A DNA stretch of 64,000 nucleotides, from positions 189,286,001-189,350,000 of the forward strand of contig NC_067401.1 in assembly GCF_016432865.1 (NCBI RefSeq). The letters run 5' to 3'. Positions 6,250 through 58,418 of this stretch are shown piece after piece. The position numbers and the translations under genes are program-made. This stretch comes from Antechinus flavipes. Its lineage: Eukaryota. Below the pieces are notes generated by a model. The model saw only the letters and a program-made list of their open reading frames with translations. It was not told the origin of the DNA and did no database searches. Each line of letters begins with the position of its first letter. The stretch's first letter is position 1.

Positions 6250-7625
6250 CTAGCTGCTTCCCTACTTCCTATACTCATACCCATGTTGGCTCTGTCCTCC
6301 TTTGATCCATCAATTCTCCTTTTTTGAGGCTATACTCCTTCAGAAACTTGTCTACAATGGGTGCTTTCACCTCCTTTCCTCTCATTCTTAACTATTTACA
6401 GCCTAACTACCATCTTCATCATTCAACCAAAACTATTCTCTCCAAAATTACCAGTGATCTAGTGGCCATATATAGTGGTCTTTTCTCAGTCATATTTCTT
6501 GACATCTCTGGAGCTTTTGACACTGTTAATCTCTCAAGTTTTTGTGACTATTTTTTCCTGATTCTTCTACCAGTATGACTGCTCCTTCTCAGTCTCCTTT
6601 TCTGAATCCATTGAGGGGAGTAATCATTGTGAAGAAGAGGTCCACATTCCTCAATACTAATTGTTTGACCAACCACCACCAAGAGTCAGATGGGTCTTAG
6701 GAATGGCAACATCTTTTAAATCACAGGTCCTGTTTCAAGCCTGGTCTTTACAACTATCATCTTGGGAAGCAATTTCTATGATAAAAGTTAACCATCCTCA
6801 TAAACTACCAACCAACTGCCACACAGGGCAGCTGGTAATCCAGGTAAAACAGCAGGGCACCTTGAGAGAAAACTAGGAAGCGGTATGTATCTGGCAAATC
6901 AGACTATCATCACAACCTTGACCAACTTCTTTCAGAACCTGATGGGCACAGTCCAAGATCCTGGACCCGAGAGTCTTGGTAATATCAATGTTTTTAACCT
7001 AGTATCGTCATCATCTTGGGAAACAACCCTGCATAGATGCAGCCTGACCACTACTCCTGTAGGCTACTGGACCCTCTCCAGTGCTGGAAGACTCAGGATT
7101 CTTGTCTCCAAAATCCTGGATGGTTCAAAATGGTTCAAAATCGTTAAACTATGATTTTACCAGTGATATGACATTATAATCTGCTTTGGCTCCCTACTTT
7201 TCATGTCAAATATAAAATTCCTTGGACTGCAAAGCCCTTAATATCTTCTCCTACCCTTTTTGGTCATCTTATGTTAAAATCCAACAATAGTTGACCACCC
7301 TGCTATTCCTCAAAAAGGCACTTCATCACCAGATTCTGGGCATTTTCAAGAGCTGCCCCAGTCCTGGAATTCTCTTCCCTTATCTCTGCCTCCAGGTCAC
7401 CCTGGCTTCCTTCAAACTCCAGATAAAAATTCCACCTTTTATGAGAAGCCTTTCCCAGTCCTCAATGCTAGTGCCTTTCCTTATCTCCAATTTATCTTCT
7501 GTCTCATTTGTACACAGTTGAGCTCCTTGAGAGTAGGAACTATATTTTTTAAACTTCTTTTGAATCTCCATTGCTTAGCACAGTACCTGGCACAGAATGT
7601 GTAGGTGCTTAATAAATGTTGGTTT
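6250..7625 (+). mobile_element. Old L2 LINE fragment (RT remnant plus 3' end), interrupted by an unclassified insert at about 6620-7160
   Basis: ORF 6324-6578 contains FLDISGAFDTVN (L2 RT motif LDLSAAFDTV); typical L2 3' end GCTTAGCACAGTACCTGGCAC...GGTGCTTAATAAATGTT at 7573-7620. Confidence 0.7.
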
Positions 7626-31780: not shown

Positions 31781-32149
31781 GGACCAGAATACCCATTCTT
31801 GGTCTTCCCAGACTTGGCCCCTGCTGACTCATGAGAAATAGAATAGATGAGACGATTATTGTTAGGCGGAGAATGCAAAACCAGATATGGATTAGAGAAT
31901 GAACTTACGAAAGGTAAAATAAATAATTTTGACACAATACCCATTTTTGTAGGAACAAAATGAATACAGCTGAAGTGAGAAACTATACGGTTTTTTTGGG
32001 GGGAGGAGAAATCTTTACAACAATCGATAAGTTTTACGTACATAGCAGCAGTGGGGAATTATCACAAATACGTAAAACAATATTGTCATTAATAATAATT
32101 AAATTTTAAAAAAAGGTTTCAGTGTCAGACCCAAAAAATGGGATAAATA

Positions 32150-33100
32150 CTACAAGGACAGTGAGCTGTTAGGCACAGGAAAATATTCCAAGGATGTTAG
32201 AGGCAGAAAGGACTTGTATTTATCAAAATATTCTGAACACTTTTGGGGAAGGAAGTAAAAACTCAAAAGCAAAATGGATACTAACAATATAACGAGTAAA
32301 GTTGCAGGACATGAAATACAAATTACAAGTACCAAATGAATACAAAACTCTAAACAATAAAGACATCTAAATAATTGGAAAGCATTATTTATGGATAGGC
32401 AAAGCCAATATAATAAAAATGACAAAATGATCTACATTTATTTATTCAATGCTATGTTAAACTGTCAAATAATTAGAGATAGAAAAAAAATGAAAAAAAG
32501 AATGAGAAAGTTTCCAGAATCTTGAGGAAAATAATAAAAAAGTAGAAAGGAAAGGATCTTAGTGGTGCCAAATCTCAAACTATACTACAAAATAATAATC
32601 ATCAATTTTGGGGTTCAGAAGTGTCACAGTTTTTTCTCAGAAAGAATTCAAGTTCAGATAGTAAAGGCATTTAATGAGGTTAATGCTCCATAAGTAGAGA
32701 AGCACCATTAACAGAATGAGGCTAGAGTTTATATAGAGAAAGGAGATTGAGAGTAAATCAGGAAAAGTGGGCAATCTCAGATAAAATTTTATACATGTAG
32801 GTGCTGTATGGGACTTTGCGTCTGTGATTGGATATCTATTGCCAGACATCTTGCTATAGGTAGGTATCTATTTGTGAATTTGTGAATGCTTGGCTCACTG
32901 GGGCCCAAAGATTCTGGCACTGTATGTATATTGCTGCCAGCGGAAAACTTCTACTTATCTCAATCAAGTTGACTTAATACTGTTTAAAAAATAGAACAGA
33001 TTAGGTACACAACATATAAAAGCAAACAATACAGTAGCTTTAGTATCTCATAAACCCAAAGTCACTCAACTAACATTTATTTATTTAAAATTATTTATAT
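32150..33100 (+). mobile_element. Degenerate L1 ORF2 fragment with a probable LTR piece inserted at about 32610-32975
   Basis: L1-like AATAATTGGAAAGCATTATTTATGGATAGGCAAAGCCAATATAATAAAAATGAC; the L1 resumes after a compositionally different insert. LTR identity is tentative. Confidence 0.5.
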
Positions 33101-35260
33101 TTTGTTAAATATTTCCCAATTACATGTAAAAGTTTTAACATTTTTTAAAATTTTGGGTTCCAATTTTCCTCCCTCTCTCTCACCTCTTCCCCATCTTCAA
33201 GAAGTCAAGCAATTTGATATCAACTATACATATGAAATCATGCAAAACATTTCCATAACATCTGTAGTACAAAAGAAACAGAAATAAATAAAAGAATAAT
33301 AAAGAAAAAATAAAAAGAATAAAGATAACAATATTAATAAAGCTTAAAAGAAAAGAAAAAGAAAGCTTTAAAAAAGTATGCTTCATTTGAATTGATTAGT
33401 TCTTTCTCTGGAGATATATAGCATTTTTAATCTGGGTCTTGTCAGAATAGCCATTTTTCACAGTTGATCATCCTTGAAATATTGTTACTGTGTACAATAT
33501 TCTCCTGGTTCTGCTCACTTAATTTTATATCAATTCATATGAGTCTTCCAGGTTTTTGTGAAACCATCCCCTTCATCATTTCTTACAACACAATAGTATT
33601 TCATTACTGTCTAACGTACACCACAACTTGTTCAGTTGTTACTCACTTTATGGGTATCCCCTTGACTGTGAATACTTTGCCACCATAAGAAGAGCCGCTA
33701 TAAATATTTGTGTATAAATGGATCCTTTTCCCTTTCCATTCAACTCTTTGGGATGAAGATCTAGTAATGATATTGCTGGGTCAAAGAATCTTATTTTATA
33801 GAACTTTAGGTATAGTTCCAAATTGTTCTCCAGAAGAGTTAGACTAGTTCACAATGCCACCAACATTGCATTAGTATCCCAATTTTTCTATATTCCCTCC
33901 AGCACTTGTCATTTTCAATTTTTGTCATGTTAGCCAATCTGATAGGTATGATGAGGCTATCTTCGAGTTGTTTTAAAAAGATAAAAAGTGTTCTAAAGAA
34001 TTATTGATAAGATAAGTATCTAATCAATAATACTTTAGAACACTTTTTATCTTTTTAAAAAAATTTTCTCATTCTTGTTTTCAAGATTCCTTGGAAGCAG
34101 GAGGAACGTACACATTGGGAAATATTAGTGATGTTATAAGGAATGATAACAAAAATATATTTTAAAACAATATTTTATACTAGAATGCAGTGTGTAAAAT
34201 CTGTAGAAAGGAGGGCAGTTTGAAAATAAAATCATCACATTCATGTTGTGTGAATTCTTTTTTCAAAGTTACTTTTTATTTCATATATTGAAATTATATA
34301 TTAGTTTCCTTTGTTAATCAATATATTTTATTCTATGCATTTTTAAGAAATATATTTTAATAATAACGTTCAATTTTCAAAATACGTGCATAGTTTTCAA
34401 CATTCACCATTGCAAAACTATATTCCAAGTTTTTCTCCATCCCTTCTTCCCACCCATCCCCCGCCTCCAGACTGCAGTATATTTTTATATGTGCAATTCT
34501 TCTTTACATATTTCCACATTTATCATGCTTCACAAGAAAAATCAGATCAAAAAAGGAAAAAAAAATAAGAAAGAAAAAAAAAGCAAACAACAACAAAAAA
34601 GATGGTTATGTTATGATCCACATTCAGTTCCCACAGTGTTCTTTCTGGATGGAGATGGCTCTCTCCATCACAAATACATTGGAATTGGCCTGAATCACCT
34701 AATTGTTGAAAAGAGCAAGTCCATCAGCGTTGATCATCACATAATTTTGTTGCCACTGTGTATAATGTTCTTTTGGTTCTACTGGCTTTATTTAGCATCA
34801 GTTCATGTAAGTCTTTCCAGGCCTTTCTGAAATCATCCTTCTGATCATTTCTTATAGAATAATACTATTCCATAACATACATATCCTATAACTTATTCAG
34901 TCATTCCTCAACTGATGGTCACCTAATCAGTTTCCAGTTTCTTGTCACCACAAAAAGAGCTGTTACAAACATTTTTGAACAGGTGTATCCTTTTCCCTTT
35001 TTTGTGATCTCTGGTATACAGACCCAGTAGAAATACTGATGGATCAAAGGGTATGCACAACTTGATAGCTCTTTGGGTGTAGTTCCAAATTGAGAACACT
35101 TTTTATGTGACTAGTGATAGCTTTGATCTCTTCTGAAAACTGGTTCTTCATATTCTTTGATTATTTTTCAACTAGGGAATGACTCTTTTTGTAAATTTGG
35201 TTCAGTTCTTTACATATTTGAGAAAAGAGTTCTTTATCAGAGAAACTTGCTGTAAATTTT
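33100..35260 (-). mobile_element. Two tandem L1 3'-end/ORF2-end fragments (about 33100-33975 and 34340-35260)
   Basis: Reverse complement of the marsupial L1 3'UTR plus ORF2 C-terminal region; both are homologous to the other L1 ends in the window. Confidence 0.7.
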
Positions 35261-36848
35261 TTCCCATCATATATTTATTGTGAAATATTAATTATTAAAT
35301 GTGTCTACTATATGCCAGGCACTTATCTTTCTTGTTTTTCAGTTATAGTAATAGAGAAAGGGATTGATAGAAAATAAATGCTTGCAATTTTTAAAGTATT
35401 TAAAATTGAATGCCCAATTAATTGAGGAACTGCTGAACAAACTATGGTTTAAAAATGTAATGGAATAATATTACATTAAGGAGGATTATTGAGAAGTGAT
35501 AAAGTGTAAAAAGCAAATATAATAAAACATATTTTAAAATAGGATAGATTTTATAGACTATTATGAAGTCACTTAACTTCTTAGTGTTCCAGGAAACTGT
35601 CTTAAAACTGTAAGTTGCAGAGAAATTACAGATCTTTATTGTTGGGGGAAGTTCATTACACAAATGAAATCAAGTCCAATCCACACTAGTAGGGGATCTC
35701 AACCTCCCTTTTTCAGAACTTGATAAATCTAACCACAAAATAAACAAGAAAGAAGTTAATGAAGTGAATAGAATTTTTTAAAACTTAAGTATGATAGATC
35801 TTTGGAGAAATTTTAATAGGAATAGAAAAAATATACCTTTTCCTCAAAAGTACATAGCACATACAAAAAATTGATCATGTTATTGAGGCATAAAAATCTC
35901 ACTATGAAATGCAAAAAGGTAGAAATAATAAATGCATCCTTTTCAGATGCAATAAAAATTACATGGGCCATGGAAAATAAACAAAAAATTAATTGGAAAT
36001 GAAATAATCTAATCCTAAAGGAGAAGTGGATCAAACAACAAATCATAGAAACAAATTGATCACTTCATCCAAAAGAATGAGACAACATACTAAAACTTAT
36101 GGGATGCAGTCAAAGCAGTTCTTATAAGGAGTTTTATATCATTAGATGTTTACAAGAATAAAATAGGGAAAAAAGATCAATGAACTAACTGGGCATACAA
36201 CTAAAAACTCTAGAAAAAAGAACAAATTAAAAACCTCCAAGTACATACCAAATTAGAAATTCTAAAAATAAAAGAGGAGATTAGTAAAATTGAAAGAAAA
36301 CCGTTGAACTAATAAAACTAAGAGTTAGTTTTATGAAAAAACCAACAAAATAGATGAATCTGGTTAATTTGACGAGAAAAAGAAAAGAAAACCAAATTAC
36401 CAATATCAAAAATGAAAAGGGTGATTTTGCCATCAATGAAGAGGAAATTAAAGTAATAATTAGAAGCTATTTTGTCCAACTGTATGCCAATAAATCTGGT
36501 AATCTAAATGAAATGGATGAATACTTTTAAAAAATATAGGTTGCCAGATTAACAGAGGAAACAAATTACTTAAATAGTCCCATTTTAGAGAAAGAAATTG
36601 AACAAGCCATTAATGAACTCCTTAAGAAAAACTCTCCAGAGCCAGATGAATTTACAAGTGAACTCTACCAAATGTTTAAAGAAAAATTAATTTCAATACA
36701 ATATAAACTACTCAGAAAAATAAGAGGAAAAGTCCTACCAATTTCCTTTTAAGACACAAATATGGCATTGATATCTAAACCAGGAAGGGCCAAAACAGAG
36801 AAAGAAAATTATAGACCAATTTCCCTAATGAATATTGATGCAAAAATC

Positions 36849-37072
36849 ATTTTAAAATAACTTTTTATTTTTCAAAATACATGCAAAGATACTTGTCAAC
36901 ATTCATCTTTGCAAAACGTTGTGTTCCAAATTTTTTACCGTTCTTCTCCTAGACAGCAAGTAATCCAATGTAGGTTAAACATAAGCAATCCATCTAAACA
37001 TATTTCCACATTTATCATGCTATATAAGAAAAATCAGATCAAAAGGAGAAAAAAAAGAGAAAGAAAAAAAAA
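36849..37072 (-). mobile_element. L1 3' fragment nested in the L1
   Basis: 12-bp TSD GATGCAAAAATC at 36837-36848 and 37073-37084. Confidence 0.8.
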
Positions 37073-37286
37073 GATGCAAAAATCTTAAATAAAATATTAG
37101 CAAAGAGATTATAGCAACTTTATCACCAGGATAATACACTATGACCAAGTGGGATTTATACCAGGAACATAATATCAGGAAAACTATTAGCATAATTGAC
37201 TATATCAATAACCAAACTAACAGAAATAATATGAGTATCTCAAAAAAGCATTTGACAAAATACAACACCCTTAAAAACACTGGAGA

Positions 37287-37444
37287 AAAGCAGCTAGGGA
37301 GCACAGTGGATAGAGCATCAACCCAGAAGTCAGAGGACCTGAGTTCATATCTGACCTCAGACACATAACACTTTCTACTTATATGACCCTGGGCAAGTCA
37401 CTTAACTCCAATTGCCTCAGGAAAAAAAAAAAAAACCAAAAAAC
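37287..37444 (+). mobile_element. WSINE1-type tRNA/CORE SINE nested in the L1
   Basis: GCAGCTAGG..CAGTGGATAGAGCA..GGACCTGAGTTCA..GGGCAAGTCACTTAAC plus A tail; 14-bp TSD AAAAACACT(G/A)GAGA at 37273-37286 and 37445-37458. Confidence 0.85.
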
Positions 37445-37693
37445 AAAAACACTAGAGAGCATATATAGGAATAAATTGAATTTTTCTTAAAATGATAAGT
37501 AGCATCTATCTAATACCATGAGTAAGCATTATATGTAATAGGAATAAGCTAGAAACCTACCCATAAAGATCAGGAATAAAACAAAGTTGCTCATTATTAC
37601 CACTATTATTCAATATAATACTAGAAATGTTAACTTAAGCAATAAGGGAAGAAAAAAAAAAATGAAGGTATTAAAGTAGGTAATGAGGAAACA

Positions 37694-37950
37694 TGTTAAG
37701 GGATAGTCAAGTCTGTAGGAGCCTCCACAGCTGTGGATCATAACATCTGAAGGAGTTGCAGGGCAGCCTTTGCTGACACAGGTCAGACAATGCAATGGCC
37801 TCTCAGTCAGACAGGTCAGAGAACAACAACTGCTTCTCAGTCTCCTTGTATCATCCTCTCACAAGAGGAGATCCATTCTGGGTTGGATCTCCAGCAGCCA
37901 CTGTCTGGTGGCTCTTGTGTATTCCAACAGCTCTCCCGTGTATTCCAACA
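37694..37950. mobile_element. Short solo LTR (257 bp), ERV2/ERVK-like by TSD length
   Basis: TG...CA termini with a 6-bp TSD GAAACA (37688-37693 and 37951-37956) splitting a continuous L1 ORF2 sequence. Confidence 0.8.
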
Positions 37951-39559
37951 GAAACAAAACTATCACTCTGCAGATAATATGATGGTATACTTAGAGAATC
38001 AGCTAAAAAACTACTAAAAACAATTAACAACTTTAGCAAAGTTGCTGAATATAAAATAAACCCACATATATCATCAGCATTTCTATGTTACCAACCAAGT
38101 CCAGCAGCAAGCATCTACCTGCCAAGAACTATATGAACATAATTACAAAACACTTTCTACACCAAGTTACTCTTGGATCCAGCAGTGTCTCTATTGAGTC
38201 TGTATCCCAAAGAGATTGTAAGAAAGGGAAAAGCACCCACATGTTCAAAAATGTTTGTAGCAGCCCTTTTTGAAGTGGAAATTGAATGGATGCCTATTGG
38301 TTGGGGAATGGTTGAATAAGTTATGGTATATGCATTTAATGGATTATCATTGTTCTATAAGAAATGATGAGCTGGGTGATTTCAGAAAAGCCTGAAAAGG
38401 CTTACATGAACAGATGCTGAGTAAAGTGAGTAGAACCAATAGAATATTGTACACAGTAATAACAAGATTATGTAATGATCAACTGTGATGGACTTGGCTC
38501 ATTTCAACAATGAGATGATTTAAGGCAATTCCAATAGACTTGTGATGGAAAGTGTCATCCCCAGCCAGAGAAATAACTATGAAATGAATGTGGATCAAAG
38601 CATAGTATTTTCACCTTGTTTTCATTTGTTTGCTTGTTTTTTTTCTCTCATGTTTTTTCCCTTATGATCGGCTTTTATTTGTGCAGCATGACAAATATTG
38701 AAATATGTTTAGAAAAGCTGCACATTTTAAATCTATATTCGATTGCTTGTTGTCTTGAGGAAGGGGAAGTGGGAAGGAGAAAAATTTGGAAAAGAAGATT
38801 TTGCAAAGGTGAATGTTGAAAACTATCTTTGCATGTATTTGGAAAAAATAAAATACTATTAAAATTTTTAAAAATTGAATTATCTAGTTTCAAACTAATA
38901 TATAAATATATAAGTACATACATATGTATGTATATATGACTTGCTATTCTTTGTATTATTATTATTCAAAGTATCATTTTGTTAAATATAGCAGTGGCAT
39001 ATGTAACTGGTAGTCCCAGTTCACAAATTTTCAATAAGGAAATGACAAATTTTACCATAGATAACATGATATAACTTTCTTCTATTTGGACAGTAGGATA
39101 ATGTATAGAATGCTGGACTCAGAGACAAGAAGATCTCAGAACCCTAAGTCCTTTTAATTTCTATCATCTGTAAAATGAGGATAAATATAGTATCTACCAC
39201 ACAAGGTTGCTGTAAGAATTAAATGAGTTGACATATATGTGTATGTATTATACACATATACTTTATTGCTATAAAAACTTAAAAGCGTTGTATAAATAAT
39301 AATTTTTTATGACATTACTCTAAAATAGAATAATACCTCTCCATATTTCTATGCTCCACATAAAAATGATAATGACTTTATAGTCCCTAAGGAAAATATA
39401 CCAATTTGAGGTAATATCATTTCTTCTCTCTCTGCAACCCCAAATCCAACTTTCCTTTCTTTTAATGGTTCTCATCTCTGGTTCAGCTGCCTAGGAGGGG
39501 TTACCATGGTGATCTGCTTGACCAAGTTACTATGATATCCTGGACCATGCCTGAGAAAC

Positions 39560-40330
39560 ATTAATTTGAATGGAGTGTGGAAACCAACTACCTCCCATAA
39601 TCTGTTGATACTGATGGAGTACAAGAAGTCATGAAGGTGGGGAGTTATTTAGAAAGAATTCAAAAACTTGGTTCATTTTTGAATAAAGGGGCAAAAGCTT
39701 TATTATGATGCCATAAGGCAGGCTAAGTTCGCTAGCAGAACTTGCAATTTACAAGGGGAAATATGGCACCTTTTATAGGAAAGGACTCTTTCCTATAAAG
39801 AAAAGCAAGGGATGCTAACTATGTTAGTTGCTTGGTTTAGAAAGTCAACTGAAGATTAAGGAATCTTTATACAAAATAATCTTGGGGGTTTATATCTGTA
39901 GCTTGGCTTCCTGATAGTATATAGTTACTTGTGGATATCAATTCAAGATAGTTTATTTGTACAAGATAATTCTATCAAAACAAGAAATTCAACAAAGGCC
40001 CACTTAAGGACAAGATAATCCTGTCAGTATCTCTCCCTGGGGCCCTCCTATAAACTGGTTTGCTACTAGGGACACGACTTTTTGCTAGGATTATTTATTT
40101 ATTCATTCCCCCCAAAATGGGACCCCATAATCTTTTCGGTTTTGGAGTGATGGTCCTGTTTTCTGAAGTTGCTTCCTGCTGGGAGTGGGTTTAGAGCTAT
40201 CTTTTGGATCCCAATAGAAGGAGTGATGAACTCAAGGGTCCAGAAGTTGGTTGAAGCAGCATCCAGTGAATCCTGAGTCTCAGGATCAGAAATTGGACTG
40301 GTAATCCAGTGTCATGCATCATTTGAACAT
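39560..40330. mobile_element. Possible LTR/ERV-derived fragment
   Basis: Composition and a reverse poly(A)-signal context resemble an LTR; termini and TSD were not found. Confidence 0.3.
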
Positions 40331-40580
40331 AAATCAAACAAGTTATCCAGAAAGGGTTAGGAATGTTAGTTTTGTAAACAATAGAGTGCTCTGATGTCTA
40401 AGCATACATCTGCCAAAGAAAGTGTTTAAAGAGGCACATTGAGTGAAGAGGATGACAGGCTGAGGGGATTTTCAGTTGTCATCGAAACACGTGTAACAAT
40501 ACTCTTGCAGGAAGAGGCTTTCTACCCCTAGATTCAATCATTGCACAGATGAATTTACTTATAAAAAGCTGACTTTACTT

Positions 40581-41164
40581 TGTAATGGGCTGAGGCTTGA
40601 GTTGATGCACTGAGGTCCCAAGCACATGAGGCTAAATAGTAATTGGACCATACTCTATTAATATATAAGCTTGGAGAAAGAATGGCCCCCACCCACTCTT
40701 TGTGCAAGTCCTGATGTGTTGTATAGGAAATGACGATTTTGGTGGGTGGAGGCAGGGGAGTGGAAAAGGAAGGGGAAGGAGATGGCTCAGTGGCTAGAGC
40801 ACCAGCCCTGAAGTCAGGAGGACCTGAGTTCAAATCTAGCCTCAGACACTTAACAATTCCTGGTTGTGTGACCATGGGCAAGTCACTTAACCCCAATTGC
40901 CTCAGCAAAAAGAAGAAGAGAAAACAAACAGAAAGGTCATGACAATGGCAATCCCAAAAGTCTCTCCTTCCCCTTCCTTTTCCACTCCCCTGCCTCCACC
41001 CACCAAAATCGTCATTTCCTATACAACACATCAGGACTTGCACAAAGAGTGGGTGGGGGCCATTCTTTCTCCAAGCTTATATATTAATAGAGTATGGTCC
41101 AATTACTATTTAGCCTCATGTGCTTGGGACCTCAGTGCATCAACTCAAGCCTCAGCCCATTACA
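40581..41164. repeat. 584-bp element with perfect 202-bp terminal inverted repeats (40581-40782 and 40963-41164), a SINE-containing spacer and flanking TTACTT direct repeats
   Basis: Base-by-base comparison shows the right arm is the exact reverse complement of the left arm. Ends are TG...CA; TTACTT lies at 40575-40580 and 41165-41170. Confidence 0.95.
40783..40935 (+). mobile_element. WSINE1-type SINE lacking its first ~10 nt, forming the palindrome spacer
   Basis: TGGCTCAGTGGCTAGAGCACCAGCCCTGAAGTCAGGAGGACCTGAGTTCAAATC...CCCCAATTGCCTCAGCAAAAAG. Confidence 0.85.
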
Positions 41165-42325
41165 TTACTTCAATTATATTAAAAGTACTTATGTCTTTTC
41201 TCCAAACCACATTTTTTTTTATTTAGTTTGAATGATCAGAAGAATAAGTTATATCAATACTCAATTATTCTTTTTTTTGGCAATATTATTTTATTTTTCA
41301 ACATTCATTTTTATAAGATTTTATGTTCCAAACTTTTTCTCCCTCTGTCACTTACCTCTCCTTTCTCCAAGACAGCAAACAATCTGAAGTAGGTTGTACA
41401 TTTACAATACTTTAAAATATATTTCCCTATTTTTCATGTTGTACAAGAAGTCAGTTATACTTGCATCATTTTGAAACATTTAAGAACCTTATTTCATACC
41501 TATTTCTAGATAGATAGAGATGGCTTTCTATCCATCTATTCATCTATTCATCCATCATCTATCTATATATCTATATATACATAAATATTACCTATCTATC
41601 TCTGTCTGTCTGTCTCTGTTTATCTCTAAGTCAAATCTATCAATTGTTATTGATCGCATCCCTTTGAGTGGCTGGTGGCATTTTTCTAGAATGATGGATT
41701 ACTGATTTAATGATCTGTCAGACATACCTGAACTAAAAAAACTTAAAACAATATCATTAATAATCCCAAGGAATTTTATCTCATTTAGCAAGTTTCAATA
41801 AGTGGAGAGCTTCAGGTGATTTCAGTTCTCAAGGATCACATATCCTAAGTAATAGGTATTGACTATAATCTGGTAACATTAAGAGATCTCTATTCATCAC
41901 AGTAAGAAAATTCATAATTTATCTTGATGTCTAAATAGATGATTTTAAGTTCAACATTATACAAATGATTCTGCTAAAAATAGACTGCTATTCACAGAAT
42001 CTCTTTAAACAATGGGAACATCTTTTAGATAACTCAGTACATACAACCAGTATAAAGTTTACCAGGAGTCACACATGATTTTATTTAAAATCTTTCATTT
42101 GCTTTGCTTTTCTTCTTTTCAAATTTAAATTAATTCTTGTTAGAAATCCTTTCTATATAATAGAATTATAGATTTTTTATTAAATCTATTTCTTGTTTGG
42201 GAATTTCACCACCAATTTTTATTTTTCTAGAACTGATGATCTTGCCACAAGACTATTATAAGAAACCTGGCAAATTCATAAATTAAAGAGAATTGACAGA
42301 GACCCCAGAAAAAGGGCTGAGTTTT

Positions 42326-43704
42326 TATTTTATTTTATTTTATAATTGTTGGGAGTTCAAATGTTGGAGTTCTTGTTTTTCTCAATACACAGCCGGTTTA
42401 GCTTAGAGCCCTCCGAATGTCTCCAAATCCAAGGGTTTTGCCCTTTAGCCTCCAATCAGCACAGAGATGGAATGAATCTCTTGTCTTCTTCACTTGGGGC
42501 TCGGCTAGCTTTCTGGTGAGTCTTTCAGACCAGCTTGGTCTCAGTGGGGGAAGTGCAGGAGCCTAGCCACCAACTACAGTGGTGTGAGATGAAGATGAAT
42601 CTGGTTGTCCACTGAACTCTCCACTCGTAGCTTTATCCTCTGAAAACTCTTCGTCTGCCACCAGCCAGCCAAGTGGAATATATTCTGCCTTGCCTCGGAG
42701 AGAGGGCTTCTGGTGTAATTCCACTGAAATCTGTCAAAGTGCTCTCTGTCTGCACCAGAGTCGCTCCTCTCCAGTCCAGCCGAACTCTCCTCTGCGACCA
42801 GCCAGCCAAGTGGAAAATGTATTCTGGAATTGCTCTCTCTCCTCATTGGCCTTATATGTGAATCTTCTGAGAGAATGGGATTATGGGTTTTCTCCCATAG
42901 TGCTCTCTGGCCCAAAGAGCTTTAAGGGAGGTGTGAACACAAAGGTGTAAACACAAGCACTGTACTAATTAGTTCTACTTAGTACCTTGTTTCAGGTTCT
43001 GGCCAAAATCTTCTTGTAAGATTAGATCAACTCTAATTAGTTAGCAGTTTGTAAGGATTCCAACATATAATAACTTTTTATTGACAGAACCCATGCCAGG
43101 GTAATTTTTTTTACAACATTATCCCTTGCATTCGCTTCTGTTCAGATTTTTCCCCTCCCTCCCTCCACCCCCTCCCCTAGATGGCAAGTAGTCCTATATA
43201 TGTTAAATATGTTGCAGTATATCCTAGATACAATATATGTTTGCAGAACCAAAAACAGTTCTCCTGTTGCACAGGGAGAGTTGGATTCAAAAGGTAAAAA
43301 TAACCCAGGAAGAAAAACAAAAATGCAAACAGTTTACATTCATTTTCCAGTGTTCTTTCTTTGGGTGTAGCTGCTTCTGTCCATCATTTATCAACTGAAA
43401 TGAAGTTAGGTCTCTTTGTCAAAGAAATCCACTTCCATCAAAATACATCCTCATTCAGTATCATTGTTGAAGTATATAATGATCTCCTGGTTCTGCTCAT
43501 TTCACTTAGCATCAGTTCATGTAAGTCTCTCCAAACCTCTCTGTATTTATCCTGCTGGTCCTTTCTTACAGAACAATAATATTCCATAGCATTCATATAC
43601 TACAATTTACCCAGCCATTCTCCAATTGATGGACATCCATTCAATTTCCAGTTTCTAACCACTACAAAGAGGGCTGCCACAAACATTTTGGCACATACAG
43701 GTCC
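42326..43704 (-). mobile_element. Young 5'-truncated L1 3' end with a 16-bp TSD, its A-rich tail split by a solo LTR
   Basis: AAAAGGGCTGAGTTTT at 42310-42325 and 43705-43720; L1 3'UTR body at 43072-43704. Confidence 0.85.
42347..43065. mobile_element. Solo LTR (719 bp), ERV2/ERVK-like by TSD length
   Basis: TGTTGG...CCAACA terminal inverted hexamer; 6-bp TSD TATAAT at 42341-42346 and 43066-43071. Confidence 0.85.
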
Positions 43705-44469
43705 AAAAGGGCTGAGTTTTGCTGTTCCTGCCTGCCCATTCCATCTATCCTTAGGGTGCTGTGGGCTGTGTTCTTTGATATCTCTTTTACCCTATAAAGG
43801 GGTGGGAGGAATAAACTAATTCTGCTTTTTTACTTTTTATCCTGTTTGGACTGCTATGAATAAACAAAACCAATCCAGATAAGATTTTCACCTTATCTCC
43901 TTTCCAATCACCAATTTTAGATTTTAACGTTATGATAGCTTCAAATAACTCAATAATCTTACAGTTTTCATTATAAATGACAATCAAATTGACTTAGATG
44001 TAATTTCCTCTAAATTACAAATTTGGGAACACCCACTTTTCCCAACATTATAAAACAAGGTTCGAAGGGCTAATAAAATAATATTATAGGTTAAAAAAAA
44101 AAAAAACAACTTTGGGATAGGGGAAGCTAGACACCTAAATCTTGGGAAGAGGAATGGATCCTGTAACTATTTATCCCAAACTTACATTATGCTTTCCCTA
44201 CATTTCTTTTGAGTTTAGCAGGGCAGTCCTAGGAATACTGAAGCAGGAAGGCCCACAAAGTACCAACTCTGAAACCAGTATCACCACCTTGCATCCCTGG
44301 ACTTTCCATTTACCACAGATCTGAATCCTACACTCTTTTAATGTTCAATTTAAAAAAAAAATGCTCTAGAAAGTGTCTAATTTTTTTATTCGTTATAAAA
44401 AATAATCTCCCAACCATCCTACCACTCCCTTTTTCATCTCGCTGCATGGACAACAATAGAGAACTACAT

Positions 44470-44846
44470 TTCCCAATAAATATAGCGCTTGGTACCGGGA
44501 GGAAAGGCCAATGGGTACCAGACACTTGCCTGGTATGGACCAATCAGTGCTTCTATAGACAGGCTTTGTCTACTATATAGCTGGCGCCTAACAAGAGAAA
44601 CCTTCCCTCCTCTCAGGCCACGCAGCGCAACGCGCCCCGCCCTGCTTCTCCTCCCAGGCTTCTCCCTTCCCCCCTTCCTTCTTTCTCCTTCACAGAACGT
44701 TTGTGCAGCTGTGTTCTGAACTGGCAGCTCTAACCTTCTGGGGAACCTTCTATTAATAAAAAGCTCAGTTCAGCGGAAAGGAGGGGGGGAAATTATATAA
44801 AAATTCTCCCTGCACGTAACGAGACAAGCAAAAGTAATTTCTAACC
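44470..44846 (+). promoter_or_regulatory. TUBB promoter/5'UTR with two CCAAT boxes 32 bp apart and a TATA-like element
   Basis: CCAAT at 44508-44512 and 44540-44544 (spacing typical of NF-Y-dependent cell-cycle promoters), TATATA at 44574-44579, pyrimidine-rich initiator-like region at about 44600. Confidence 0.65.
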
Positions 44847-48764
<3,918 letters not shown>

Positions 48765-50465: not shown

Positions 50466-53400
50466 CTAATTTGCCTGAAGGAAGAGAAAAAGGAAGTATT
50501 GGCATACTTTCTTACCATAGCAGGCTTGCTAGGTAAGAAACCCAAATATTCATGTCATTGCTTAAATATACCCTAGAGACAGCCCCATTTTGTGGTAAGA
50601 AGCAATATCACAATTTAACAATTAAGATCTGACAACCAGATTAAAGCAACCAATATGGCCCCATTTATAGGCTTCTCACCTGGGAAATGCTAACACCTGT
50701 GAGCTTCTCCACACAATTTGGCAAGTGGCTTAGAATGTCCAATACTTCTCCAGTCACCTTGGCAGCCCCCAATGTACCTCCCCCACTAGATACCAGTGTG
50801 ATTTTTTTGGCAGAACTTAGAGGACCACTGATTTCCTCTGCCACCTAAATGAAAGAAGAAAGACCTGTTAAGTAGTCCTTGTCCCTGGTTGCCTTTACTG
50901 TCTAAAGAATTCATTCTCTAACCTGAGTTCTCAATCCTCTGTCCCTAATTCAGGCTATAATCCAGGCACTTCCCCACCCCAAATTATTCTTGCTACATCT
51001 CACCAGGCTCTTGCTACATCTCACCAGGCTCTTAAATTCTTCTGTACACAATAAACACTTAATAAATGGTGGTTCTGTTGACCTGTTTATTGATCCAATT
51101 TCTCCATTTTCTGGTTTAAAATCTAGTTTTAGCCAATTTTTCCCATTTCAACTATCCCAATTCATTGCTTTGAGCTTCCAAAATCTAATTTACTATCTTT
51201 TCTATTTTCCATTAAACTTCCCTTAGGAATATAACCTCGCCCAAACTCAAACCTGGGGTAGTTTCTCCAGCAACATATCCAGTTGGGCAGCTTCCTGGTA
51301 TAATTGAAAGGCCTCTGCCTTCTTGGCCATCTGTTGAGCCTCTGCCCGGGCCCGGACCCCTATAGCATATGCTTCTGCTTCCCCACGTATCTATGAGATA
51401 AGATTTTGTTGGGGGAAAGAGGGAAGACTACAGCTAGGGACAAGATTCCCAGTTGTTGATCCATTCTTTCTCTAGCCCTATCCCTTGACTGACCCGGATT
51501 GACTCAGCTTCAGCTTCTGCTTGCATAATCAGCTGGGACCTGAGAAAGAAAAGGGGAAAAAGGTGTAGAGGGGGGGAATATTTGCTTCTACCCTAGGAAG
51601 GGAGGAAGATGTAAATGGATGTAATGGGATAGAGATGTAAATGAGCAGATTCTTAATAAGGCAAGCTAGAGAATAAAATAACAGAAGTTTTTCATGGAGG
51701 GAGACAAGACCACTAATTGCTAAATCTAATTTGTCCATCTCAAAGTGAGAATAGGATGGGTGTCCCTTACCTCTCCGCCTCAGCTAGTCTTTCTAAGCGG
51801 TATCGGTCAGCCTCTGAGGGCTTCTTCACCCGAGCTTCTAGCTCCTTCTCTCGACGAGTTATCTCCTGTTCTTGCAATGCCACCTGCTGGGCCCGCTCCA
51901 CTACTTGTACCTGCACTCGCTGCTCCTCTATATGCTGCTTTGTCTTTGCCACCTGGATGAATTAGGGACCAGAAATCAGATATAGTGAACCAGAAAGTTA
52001 GTGTTCAGATACTAAGAATAAGGATGTGATGGTGAGAGTTAAATGTAACATAGGCTTAGATTTAATCCCACCTGAAACTGCATAATCTTTGGCTTTTAAT
52101 AAGGATATTAAAATCTTGGTGTATAGGGAAAGTCAACTTAATATACCCTAGACCAATCTCATATCTTTAGGACTTTTCCTAAAAATATTCCCAACTTCCT
52201 TAATACTCCAATTTGGACTATACCATTGCTGCAGTATAGCACTTTTCTAATAGGTCTTTCTGCTTTCATTATCTACACTCTACACTATCATTCAAATTCA
52301 TTTTTCTTTTATAGATAGTAAACTCAAAGATCTTAAGTAGCTCTCTAATAAAGTTGAAACTTCTTTTTCTGGTATTCAAGCCTCCCTACATCTAGTGCCG
52401 ACCTAATTTTACACATGCTTCATCTAATGTTGACTGCTTTTTGCACACTTCTCCCCCCATCATTTTGATAAACGTATTTTGCTACCCATATAGCTGGAAT
52501 ACCTTCTTTCACAATTTTTGCTTAACCCCTCTTCAAAATCAAATGAATGCTTTTTCCTCCAAAGTCTTCCCTGATAACTTACATTGATGACATCATACCT
52601 CATAAAGTCTTTTGGTCTGCAACTCTCTAATGATATACATTAAAATAATATACATAAAAGATATCTCTTTTGTAATTTGCAAATAAGTTTCACTAAGCCA
52701 GGAACTGTATCTTTCTAAACTTTGTAACACTTCCCTCGTAACAGTTTCTTTGCAAGAAACACTTAATACATGTGGATTATTAAATGAAAGAACATACCTA
52801 CATTTTTTAGGAATGGTTTGTTTTCAGCCTATACTGTTGGCTTAGAGCATTCCATCCATAAAGTTACTACTCACTACCCACTAGTCAAGTTCTTACCTTT
52901 TTGAGCTTCAAGAGAATGCTAAAATTAGGTATACATTGAAATCTTGTAATCTCAGCCATAGTCACTATAATGTTTGGGGAAAATGGACTTTTTGAAGGGG
53001 AAGGGATTGGATCTATTATAGCCAAAGTAGCAATTAAAAAAAAAATCCAACAGAACTAAAAATCAAATACCTGTCTCTTTTCTGTTCTACCATACAAGAT
53101 TATGGCCTTTGTTTATATATATGTATAGTTGTTGTGATTGTTCCTTTGCAAGGCAATTAGGATTAAGTGACTTGCCCAGACTTTAGCCCAAGCTAAAAAG
53201 TGTTAAGTGTCTGAGGATGCATTTGAATTGGGGTCCTACTGACTCCAGGACTGATGCTCTATCCACTATGCCATTTAGCTGCCTTAACTGGCCTTTGTTT
53301 ATGTTTCCCCTGCCTTTAATCTTTGTCTTTCTGATACTTTTAGTATTATGGAAAAGACAGGGAAAGCAGATCAGAGACTGTTAAAAATAAAGATGTCCAA

Positions 53401-57135: not shown

Positions 57136-57287
57136 GGGGGGGCAGCTAGGTGGCGCAGTGGATAGAACACCAGACTTGAAGTCAGGAGGACCTGAATTCA
57201 AATGTGATCTCAGACACCTAACACTTCCTAGCTGTGTGACCCTGGGCAAGTCACTTAACCCCAATTGCCTCAGGAAAAAAAAAAAGT
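57136..57287 (+). mobile_element. Full-length WSINE1-type SINE
   Basis: GGGCAGCTAGGTGGCGCAGTGGATAG (A box)...GACCTGAATTCAAATG (B box)...A tail; 13-bp TSD GAA(T/C)AAAAATTGT at 57123-57135 and 57288-57300. Confidence 0.9.
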
Positions 57288-58418
57288 GAACAAAAATTGT
57301 ATAAACAAGATCCTTCTAAATGAAAGGCACTCTCAGAGAGAAGGCAATGAGGGTAGAAGAGGAATCAAATACTCTACCTTGTGCTGTGCTGCTTTTTGGA
57401 GGCCTCCCTCTCCCATTAAAACTTCCTTGCATTGCCAAATAAGTACTCTTGTTTTCTGGAATCTTTTAATTCCCAAGGCTAGCCTTATTTAATAAATTTT
57501 CCCCATTGATTTTAATGCAAGTTATCCCTTTCTTAAGTCTGTTTTCTGATTTAATGACTCAGAAGTTGGGATGTATTGATCTAGATATTGTAAATAGCTT
57601 GAGTCCATGAGAAGAAATTAGTTGGTCAGTGGGGACCTTAGGATATTCAGGAACTAAAGGAATTACCAAATCATAGATTTAGAACTGAAAGGGATTTTAG
57701 AGGATATTGAATCTAACTCTTTCGTTTTATAGATTAAGAAATGACGGCCAAGGGTCATCTCTAATTTATCCTCTTGGTATATAGTTCACTAATTTATCTT
57801 GTTGGTATATACTTATTTGCATGTTGTCTCCCCCATTACATTATAAACTCCATGAGAGCAGGGATTGGTGGGGTTTTGTTTTGGCCTTTCTTTGTATTCC
57901 CATTGTCTGACTATTAGGTGATTTATAAATTCTTGTTTAAGCTGACCAAAGGTTAAGTGACACTATTGGACAAGTCCAATGAATAATCTTTTTTAATCAC
58001 ACTGAAATACACTTGATCTTCACAATTCTGTGAGCTAAGTAATGAAAGTAGCATTAATTACATCAGAATAGGGAATTCCTTTCACTAACAAGAGTTGACA
58101 ACTGTAACTTGCAGTCTTAGGAGTTTCTGGGGTAAAAACTTTAAGTAAGAACTTAAATGACTTTTGAAGTCAAACAGCTGATATGTCAAATGCAGGATTT
58201 TCACAAACCTAGATCTTCTTGATACCAAGATTTTTCCTTAATCCATTTCCCCAAACTATATGTGATCCTCATTTTTAGGAAGATAAGGCTTTGAGAAATT
58301 GAACTGACTTTTCCTACTCTAGTCCTCTTTGCATTATATCAAGATGCTATTCTCAAGAGGAAAGAAGAACCATTCTCAAGAAACAGCCACAAGATTGGTT
58401 TCCAGCAGTAAGAACAAT

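Follow-up and report, generated by a model that had tools for sequence, protein, structure and literature searches.

The stretch of DNA analysed here, a 64-kb window of the Antechinus flavipes genome, contains between positions 179 and 48764 the genes DHX16, PPP1R18, NRM and MDC1, all on the minus strand, followed by TUBB on the plus strand. The names DHX16, NRM, MDC1 and TUBB were given by recognition of the translations, and the order DHX16-PPP1R18-NRM-MDC1-TUBB corresponds to a familiar gene block of the MHC class I region in mammals. The PPP1R18 exon is identical to the Tasmanian devil protein at 527 of 550 positions, and reaches about 80% against other marsupial orders, which places the host among the dasyurids. 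The unit described below is intergenic: it lies 10.0 kb from the start codon of MDC1 (minus strand) and 3.7 kb from that of TUBB (plus strand), and both genes are directed away from it. The 1.6 kb on its left side (39000-40580) show nothing similar elsewhere in the window, and parts of them resemble a decayed repeat of another kind. The components of the unit are the following:

40575-40580, plus strand: left copy of the TSD TTACTT, ascribed to the original ERV integration; a TSD of 6 bp is likewise present in the MEBrv 3 representative
40581-40782, plus strand: left arm, probably a new inverted copy of the first 202 bp of the LTR, in place of the LTR 3′ part
40783-40905, plus strand: body of a WSINE1-type tRNA-derived SINE, with about 12 nt absent at the 5′ end and the upstream TSD absent
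40783-40793, plus strand: A box of the SINE, intact
40828-40836, plus strand: B box of the SINE, intact
40906-40934, plus strand: degenerate, A-rich tail of the SINE
40935-40962, minus strand: LTR remnant, present on the donor side only, which should contain the downstream TSD copy of the SINE
40963-41164, minus strand: right arm, probably the original 5′ end of an MEBrv 3-like solo LTR (donor)
41165-41170, plus strand: right copy of the TSD TTACTT

Over their 202 bp, the arms at 40581-40782 and 40963-41164 are reverse complements of each other without a single mismatch. They enclose a spacer of 180 bp, and their pairing ends immediately beyond the 202 bp, both outward and inward. Among the 25 longest of the 42 inverted pairs of at least 30 nt in the 64-kb window, this is the sole pair at 100%; the other long inverted pairs show 70-94% identity, and the second-longest exact inverted arm in the whole window measures 28 bp. 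TTACTT stands on either side of the unit, and when flank lengths of 3-11 were tried a direct repeat appeared at 6 only, for which the probability by chance, from local composition, is about 8e-4. Both the perfect 202-bp inverted arms and the intact 6-bp TSD, which a preliminary description had reported, are borne out by these results. No further copy of the arm was found within the window, and in a search for contaminating copies in bacterial and archaeal genomes none of 327 pattern matches was confirmed. Perfect identity amid decayed surroundings might betray an artefact of assembly or library, either a foldback chimera or polishing that removed real differences between the arms. This is quite unlikely, given that the inversion ends, and the forward strand resumes, precisely where the LTR terminates, with the 6-bp TSD left in place, that the junction overlaps of 2-7 nt are, by general assembler reasoning, too short for graph mis-joins, and that the window holds a single such structure and contains no Ns; polishing might reduce the divergence of the arms, but it could not generate the left one.

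Judged by its sequence, the arm corresponds to the 5′ (U3-side) portion of an LTR like that of MEBrv 3, i.e., marsupial endogenous betaretrovirus 3, a class II, IAP-like, env-less element (Harding et al., 2024; PMC11334065). The starts of eight representative marsupial ERVs, taken from the supplement of that work, were compared with the arm, and one of them, MEBrv 3, resembled it. The arm and the MEBrv 3 LTR are identical at 156 of 175 positions (89%; counted by eye, with one representative, and passing over a 61-nt duplication in the reference LTR), distributed as 119 matching sites in arm positions 1-137 and 37/38 in positions 138-175. Arm positions 176-202 are a purine tract in arm and reference alike, whose alignment is unreliable, and they stand outside the 175-position count. 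The earlier proposal that the arm is the 5′ (U3) part of an ERV LTR is thereby supported, and the LTR can now be assigned to an MEBrv 3-like family.

In dasyurids, MEBrv 3 is the majority ERV (PMC11334065), and the same source reports recent activity in quoll, dunnart and antechinus. As a clade it is defined by pol/RT phylogeny, and the unit contains no internal sequence of this kind. The LTRs of the reference record are annotated at 29-497 and 6812-7280 and are identical, as in a young provirus. Its 6-bp TSD occupies record positions 23-28 and 7281-7286, a primer site follows the 5′ LTR, a purine tract precedes the 3′ LTR, and the poly(A) signal is located at LTR positions 398-403. The unit has the TG...CA ends and the 6-bp TSD expected of an MEBrv 3 LTR, so that in these features, as well as in its 5′ LTR sequence and its dasyurid host, it is like an MEBrv 3 solo LTR. 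It differs in that the 3′ part with the poly(A) signal is gone and an inverted 5′ copy is found instead. Neither AATAAA nor ATTAAA occurs in the unit on either strand and, therefore, it has to be regarded as a derivative of an MEBrv 3 LTR and not as an intact solo LTR. With respect to the reference, it also carries a SINE and lacks the 61-nt internal duplication. A devil ERV1 solo LTR (PMC4408412) was considered as the source of the arm as well, and was dropped on account of its TSDs of 4 nt. Arm motifs gave no match in four supplementary files of PMC4408412, a weak result, since such a search missed the homologue in PMC11334065, which is printed in blocks of ten.

Most of the spacer is a SINE that appears to be of the WSINE1 type, a name taken from the description in PMC3403934; the hallmarks of this family, namely a tRNA-derived head, A and B boxes, a short body, an A tail and abundant copies, are all present. 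Further WSINE1-type copies lie at 57151-57296, 37301-37449 and 53151-53273, the first two of which retain 9-nt TSDs. Identity with these three copies is 77-86%. Counted by site, the differences number 15/122, 19/121 and 29/122, and the branch proper to the spacer SINE amounts to 5.7-7.0%. The SINE starts at its A box, without about 12 nt that the three other copies possess; the loss becomes 9-10 nt if the 2-3-nt junction overlap is assigned to the SINE. A 9-nt TSD was found in the two other copies tested, while around the spacer SINE only 5-nt purine matches occur. The diverged WSINE1 of the preliminary description therefore stands, and its 5′ loss is corrected from about 10 to about 12 nt. 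This decayed SINE also bears on a different origin of the arms, in which a full provirus with two identical LTRs was hit by inversion and deletion, or a second LTR was inserted in the opposite orientation and then converted. The LTRs of a young provirus are indeed identical at insertion, as in the MEBrv 3 reference, but the unit has a single TSD, the old SINE inside and no internal ERV sequence; for an inversion, one of the breaks would have had to coincide precisely with the LTR end, and in the case of two independent insertions the common 6-mer would be fortuitous (about 8e-4). Such an origin is extremely unlikely.

The 28 nt that close the spacer (40935-40962) do not belong to the SINE; on the minus strand, at least 14 of these nucleotides extend the LTR. 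Read in that orientation, 40962-40949 can be aligned by eye to reference LTR positions 262-276, where 12 of 14 sites are identical, a single 1-nt gap is needed and eight consecutive bases match exactly. At the inner end of the left arm, on the contrary, the LTR similarity ceases and the SINE starts directly. Since the LTR similarity extends past the repeat boundary on the right arm only, the left arm can be identified as the copy and the right arm as the original. The head of the SINE and its upstream TSD are missing, which indicates that a single continuous segment, comprising the SINE head, its TSD and the LTR 3′ part, was overwritten by the copy. Within 40935-40948, 13 bases read on the minus strand resemble positions 346-358 of the reference LTR at 10 sites (by eye), a short match; if it holds, and it is too short to be sure, the LTR at this locus would be a shorter variant than the reference.

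The unit is quite probably the product of a recent single template switch in an MEBrv 3-like solo LTR and not a new transposon. The order of events that we infer begins with an MEBrv 3-like ERV, which would have integrated on the minus strand with a 6-bp TSD and would then have been reduced to a solo LTR. A WSINE1, to judge from its position and decay, would have entered this LTR afterwards, in the opposite orientation. Much later, one switch-and-return during replication or repair would have copied the first 202 bp of the LTR in reverse-complemented form, and this copy would have replaced a segment that presumably comprised the LTR 3′ part, the upstream TSD of the SINE and about 12 nt of the SINE itself. 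One of the switch points would be the LTR's own short inverted termini (5-7 nt). In this sense, the 3′ end of the reference LTR, once reverse-complemented, agrees with the first 5 nt of the arm and with 6 of its first 7; if the lost LTR 3′ end resembled the reference, 5-7 nt of homology were thus available right at the LTR boundary. Use of these termini in the switch would account for a boundary that coincides with the LTR end and for the survival of the TSD. The other switch point would be the 2-3-nt overlap at the SINE 5′ end, where the purine tract ends: the last bases of the arm are AGA, and two of the three SINE copies show AG followed by G or A at the junction. An overlap of this size is within chance and is lacking in one of the three comparison copies, so it is weak on its own. 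The event would belong to the four-point type 1-4-3-2 or to its mirror 3-2-1-4. The new strand may have passed to the opposite strand via the LTR-end homology and come back at the SINE or, alternatively, the fold-back may have taken place at the SINE head, with re-entry at the LTR end; both routes are equally compatible with the sequence. Local template switching in a SINE-bearing solo LTR was one of the two models initially proposed for the unit, and it fits the polarity of the arms, the truncated SINE without its upstream TSD, and what may be short homologies at both junctions. Homology of this kind is usual at switch points but not obligatory.

Short-range template-switch mutations (Loytynoja and Goldman, 2017, PMC5453318; Loytynoja, 2022) are similar in that a nearby reverse-complement copy replaces the adjoining segment and a perfect inverted repeat is formed around an uninverted spacer. 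PMC5453318 indicates that types 1-4-3-2 and 3-2-1-4 create inverted repeats, and that type 1-4-3-2 together with its mirror represents 31% of 794 high-confidence human-chimp events. One difference from the events described there is the size, 202 bp as opposed to a mean of about 12 bp. In 10.1101/2021.11.26.470150, unmasked human events have a mean of 11.56 bp and maxima of 97-180, and human template-switch events extend up to 318 bp. The 202 bp of the arm consequently lie in the far tail of event lengths, and the jump must span roughly 500-600 bp, both of which speak against a template switch. A further difference is that the unit sits inside repeats, which the surveys largely masked, and that the switch was apparently guided by the LTR inverted termini.

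Regarding the time of the event, arms as old as the branch of the SINE would differ at about 24 sites, and the observed number is zero. With no difference observed, the 95% upper limit on their age is 1.7 My if the published WSINE1 rate is used (0.0045/My; PMC3403934) and 3.7 My if a rate of 0.002 is assumed; the arm duplication probably dates within the last few million years. The rough branch length of the SINE corresponds to about 13-16 My at the published rate, and WSINE1 has been inactive for 23-30 My, according to PMC4408412. These two values and the 11% distance of the arm from a recently active element are compatible only loosely; on either dating, the SINE is far older than the identity of the arms. 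It is important to note that arm identity alone does not distinguish recent origin from recent conversion, with which it fits equally well. The unit might accordingly be an old inverted repeat held identical by repeated arm-to-arm conversion, perhaps since its hairpin is used. Template switching is described in PMC5453318 as making near-perfect repeats perfect, and the hairpin would be very stable as RNA (predicted fold of -464 kcal/mol, z -41.8). This history demands, however, conversion of the full 202 bp every few million years over a 180-bp spacer, a distance at which pairing is poor in eukaryotic forks (PMC7999016), and Rfam, searched over 32000-45000, yielded nothing on the unit up to E 0.1. 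We regard it as unlikely.

The second initial model, a mobile MITE-like unit, received no support. In it, the MEBrv 3 machinery would have made or mobilised the foldback, with a two-U3-ended DNA inserted by integrase as a unit; this DNA is pictured as a fold-back product of reverse transcription, from a source element that carried the SINE. The unit is bounded on both sides by the same TG...CA LTR end and by a perfect 6-bp TSD, and the recent activity of MEBrv 3 mentioned above is in agreement with the model. An intact TSD would be expected with a probability of about 1 after a young insertion compared with 0.4-0.6 after an old one, and its intactness weighs little, as an old TSD survives with the latter probability. 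Besides, a 6-bp TSD is the ordinary footprint of MEBrv 3 integration and thus gives no support to MITE-like mobility. Neither strand of the unit contains a PBS-like site, the repeats are inverted and not direct, and no purine tract lies beyond either end. By established retrovirology, the unit, which lacks PBS, PPT and poly(A) signal, cannot itself be reverse-transcribed in the standard ERV manner. The model also requires a source LTR bearing a long-dead SINE, the 64-kb window contains no second copy of the unit, and no comparable product was found described in the openly accessible literature. Taken as a whole, insertion by integrase is very unlikely, and the product of the template switch is probably an immobile, single-locus and neutral rearrangement that mimics a foldback transposon.

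The outward likeness to MITE and foldback DNA transposons (e.g., RCHARR1 of the devil; PMC4408412) consists of long terminal inverted arms, a non-coding spacer and a TSD. The ends, however, are not derived from a DNA transposon: the arms are betaretroviral LTR and not transposase-binding ends, and neither multiple copies (in the 64-kb window) nor a matching transposase was seen. DIRS-1 retrotransposons also have inverted long terminal sequences (PMC3950715), but these elements encode RT and a tyrosine recombinase, whereas no recognisable product is encoded by the unit, whose arms derive from an ERV of the integrase type. A stop-free frame of 173 codons (40558-41076, minus strand) spans arm, SINE and arm. 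None of 46 candidates scored in a protein search with this frame, and a further search returned six matches: four to antisense SINE, one to a tRNA-like stretch and one to a repetitive protein. As a gene the frame is likely spurious; the matches correspond to exonised antisense SINE in predicted proteins or to chance, and none of them runs via the LTR.

No description of a foldback solo LTR was found in the openly accessible literature. The parts and the mechanism are already known, and their combination represents a neat and unusually long instance, in which 600 bp of a single locus show the donor and the recipient, the two points of switching and, in SINE decay and arm identity, two relative clocks. 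It also illustrates that inverted arms plus a TSD are no proof of mobility, a caution for the automated annotation of MITEs. Since template-switch surveys mostly masked repeats, foldbacks guided by LTR ends may have been missed. It is quite unlikely that foldback solo LTRs form a recurring class, in which the short inverted ends of any solo LTR could guide a long switch into a MITE-like palindrome, with some of the two-U3-ended units inserted or reinserted by ERV integrase in those dasyurids in which MEBrv 3 is active; if true, this would provide a route from a retroviral LTR to a foldback element and to long dsRNA loci. The devil genome alone contains about 64,500 solo LTRs (PMC11334065).

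Formation of dsRNA would require a transcript that runs through the two arms, and the neighbouring genes both point away. A Pol III transcript from the SINE would encounter four Ts at position 40978, after covering 16 nt of the right arm, and would probably stop there, in which case it would form a short stem only. Transcription of the unit driven by the LTR, or antisense from upstream of TUBB, is possible. Template switches create hairpin RNA genes near TE promoters (PMC10710096), and these de novo miRNAs resemble the unit in that their perfect stem arises at once, close to the promoter of a TE; their stems are miRNA-sized, in contrast to the 202 bp found here. The preliminary description had also suggested cruciform extrusion, which is unlikely with a 180-bp spacer (about 200 kcal/mol net to open, by a crude nearest-neighbour sum). 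In eukaryotic cells, fork stalling has been reported at spacers of 12 bp and not of 52 bp (PMC7999016), and in yeast the spacer transition is near 8-9 bp (PMC8053094). The long spacer, averse to cruciforms, may be the reason for the persistence of the repeat. A second palindrome is found in the same intergenic interval at 33968-34063, in sequence with 76% AT, with arms of 47 nt at 94% identity, an exact core of 28 bp and a loop of 2-4 nt. Rfam gave only weak hairpin matches on it, far under the cut-off. This palindrome is a better candidate for a cruciform than the LTR unit, and it is perhaps an older product of template switching.
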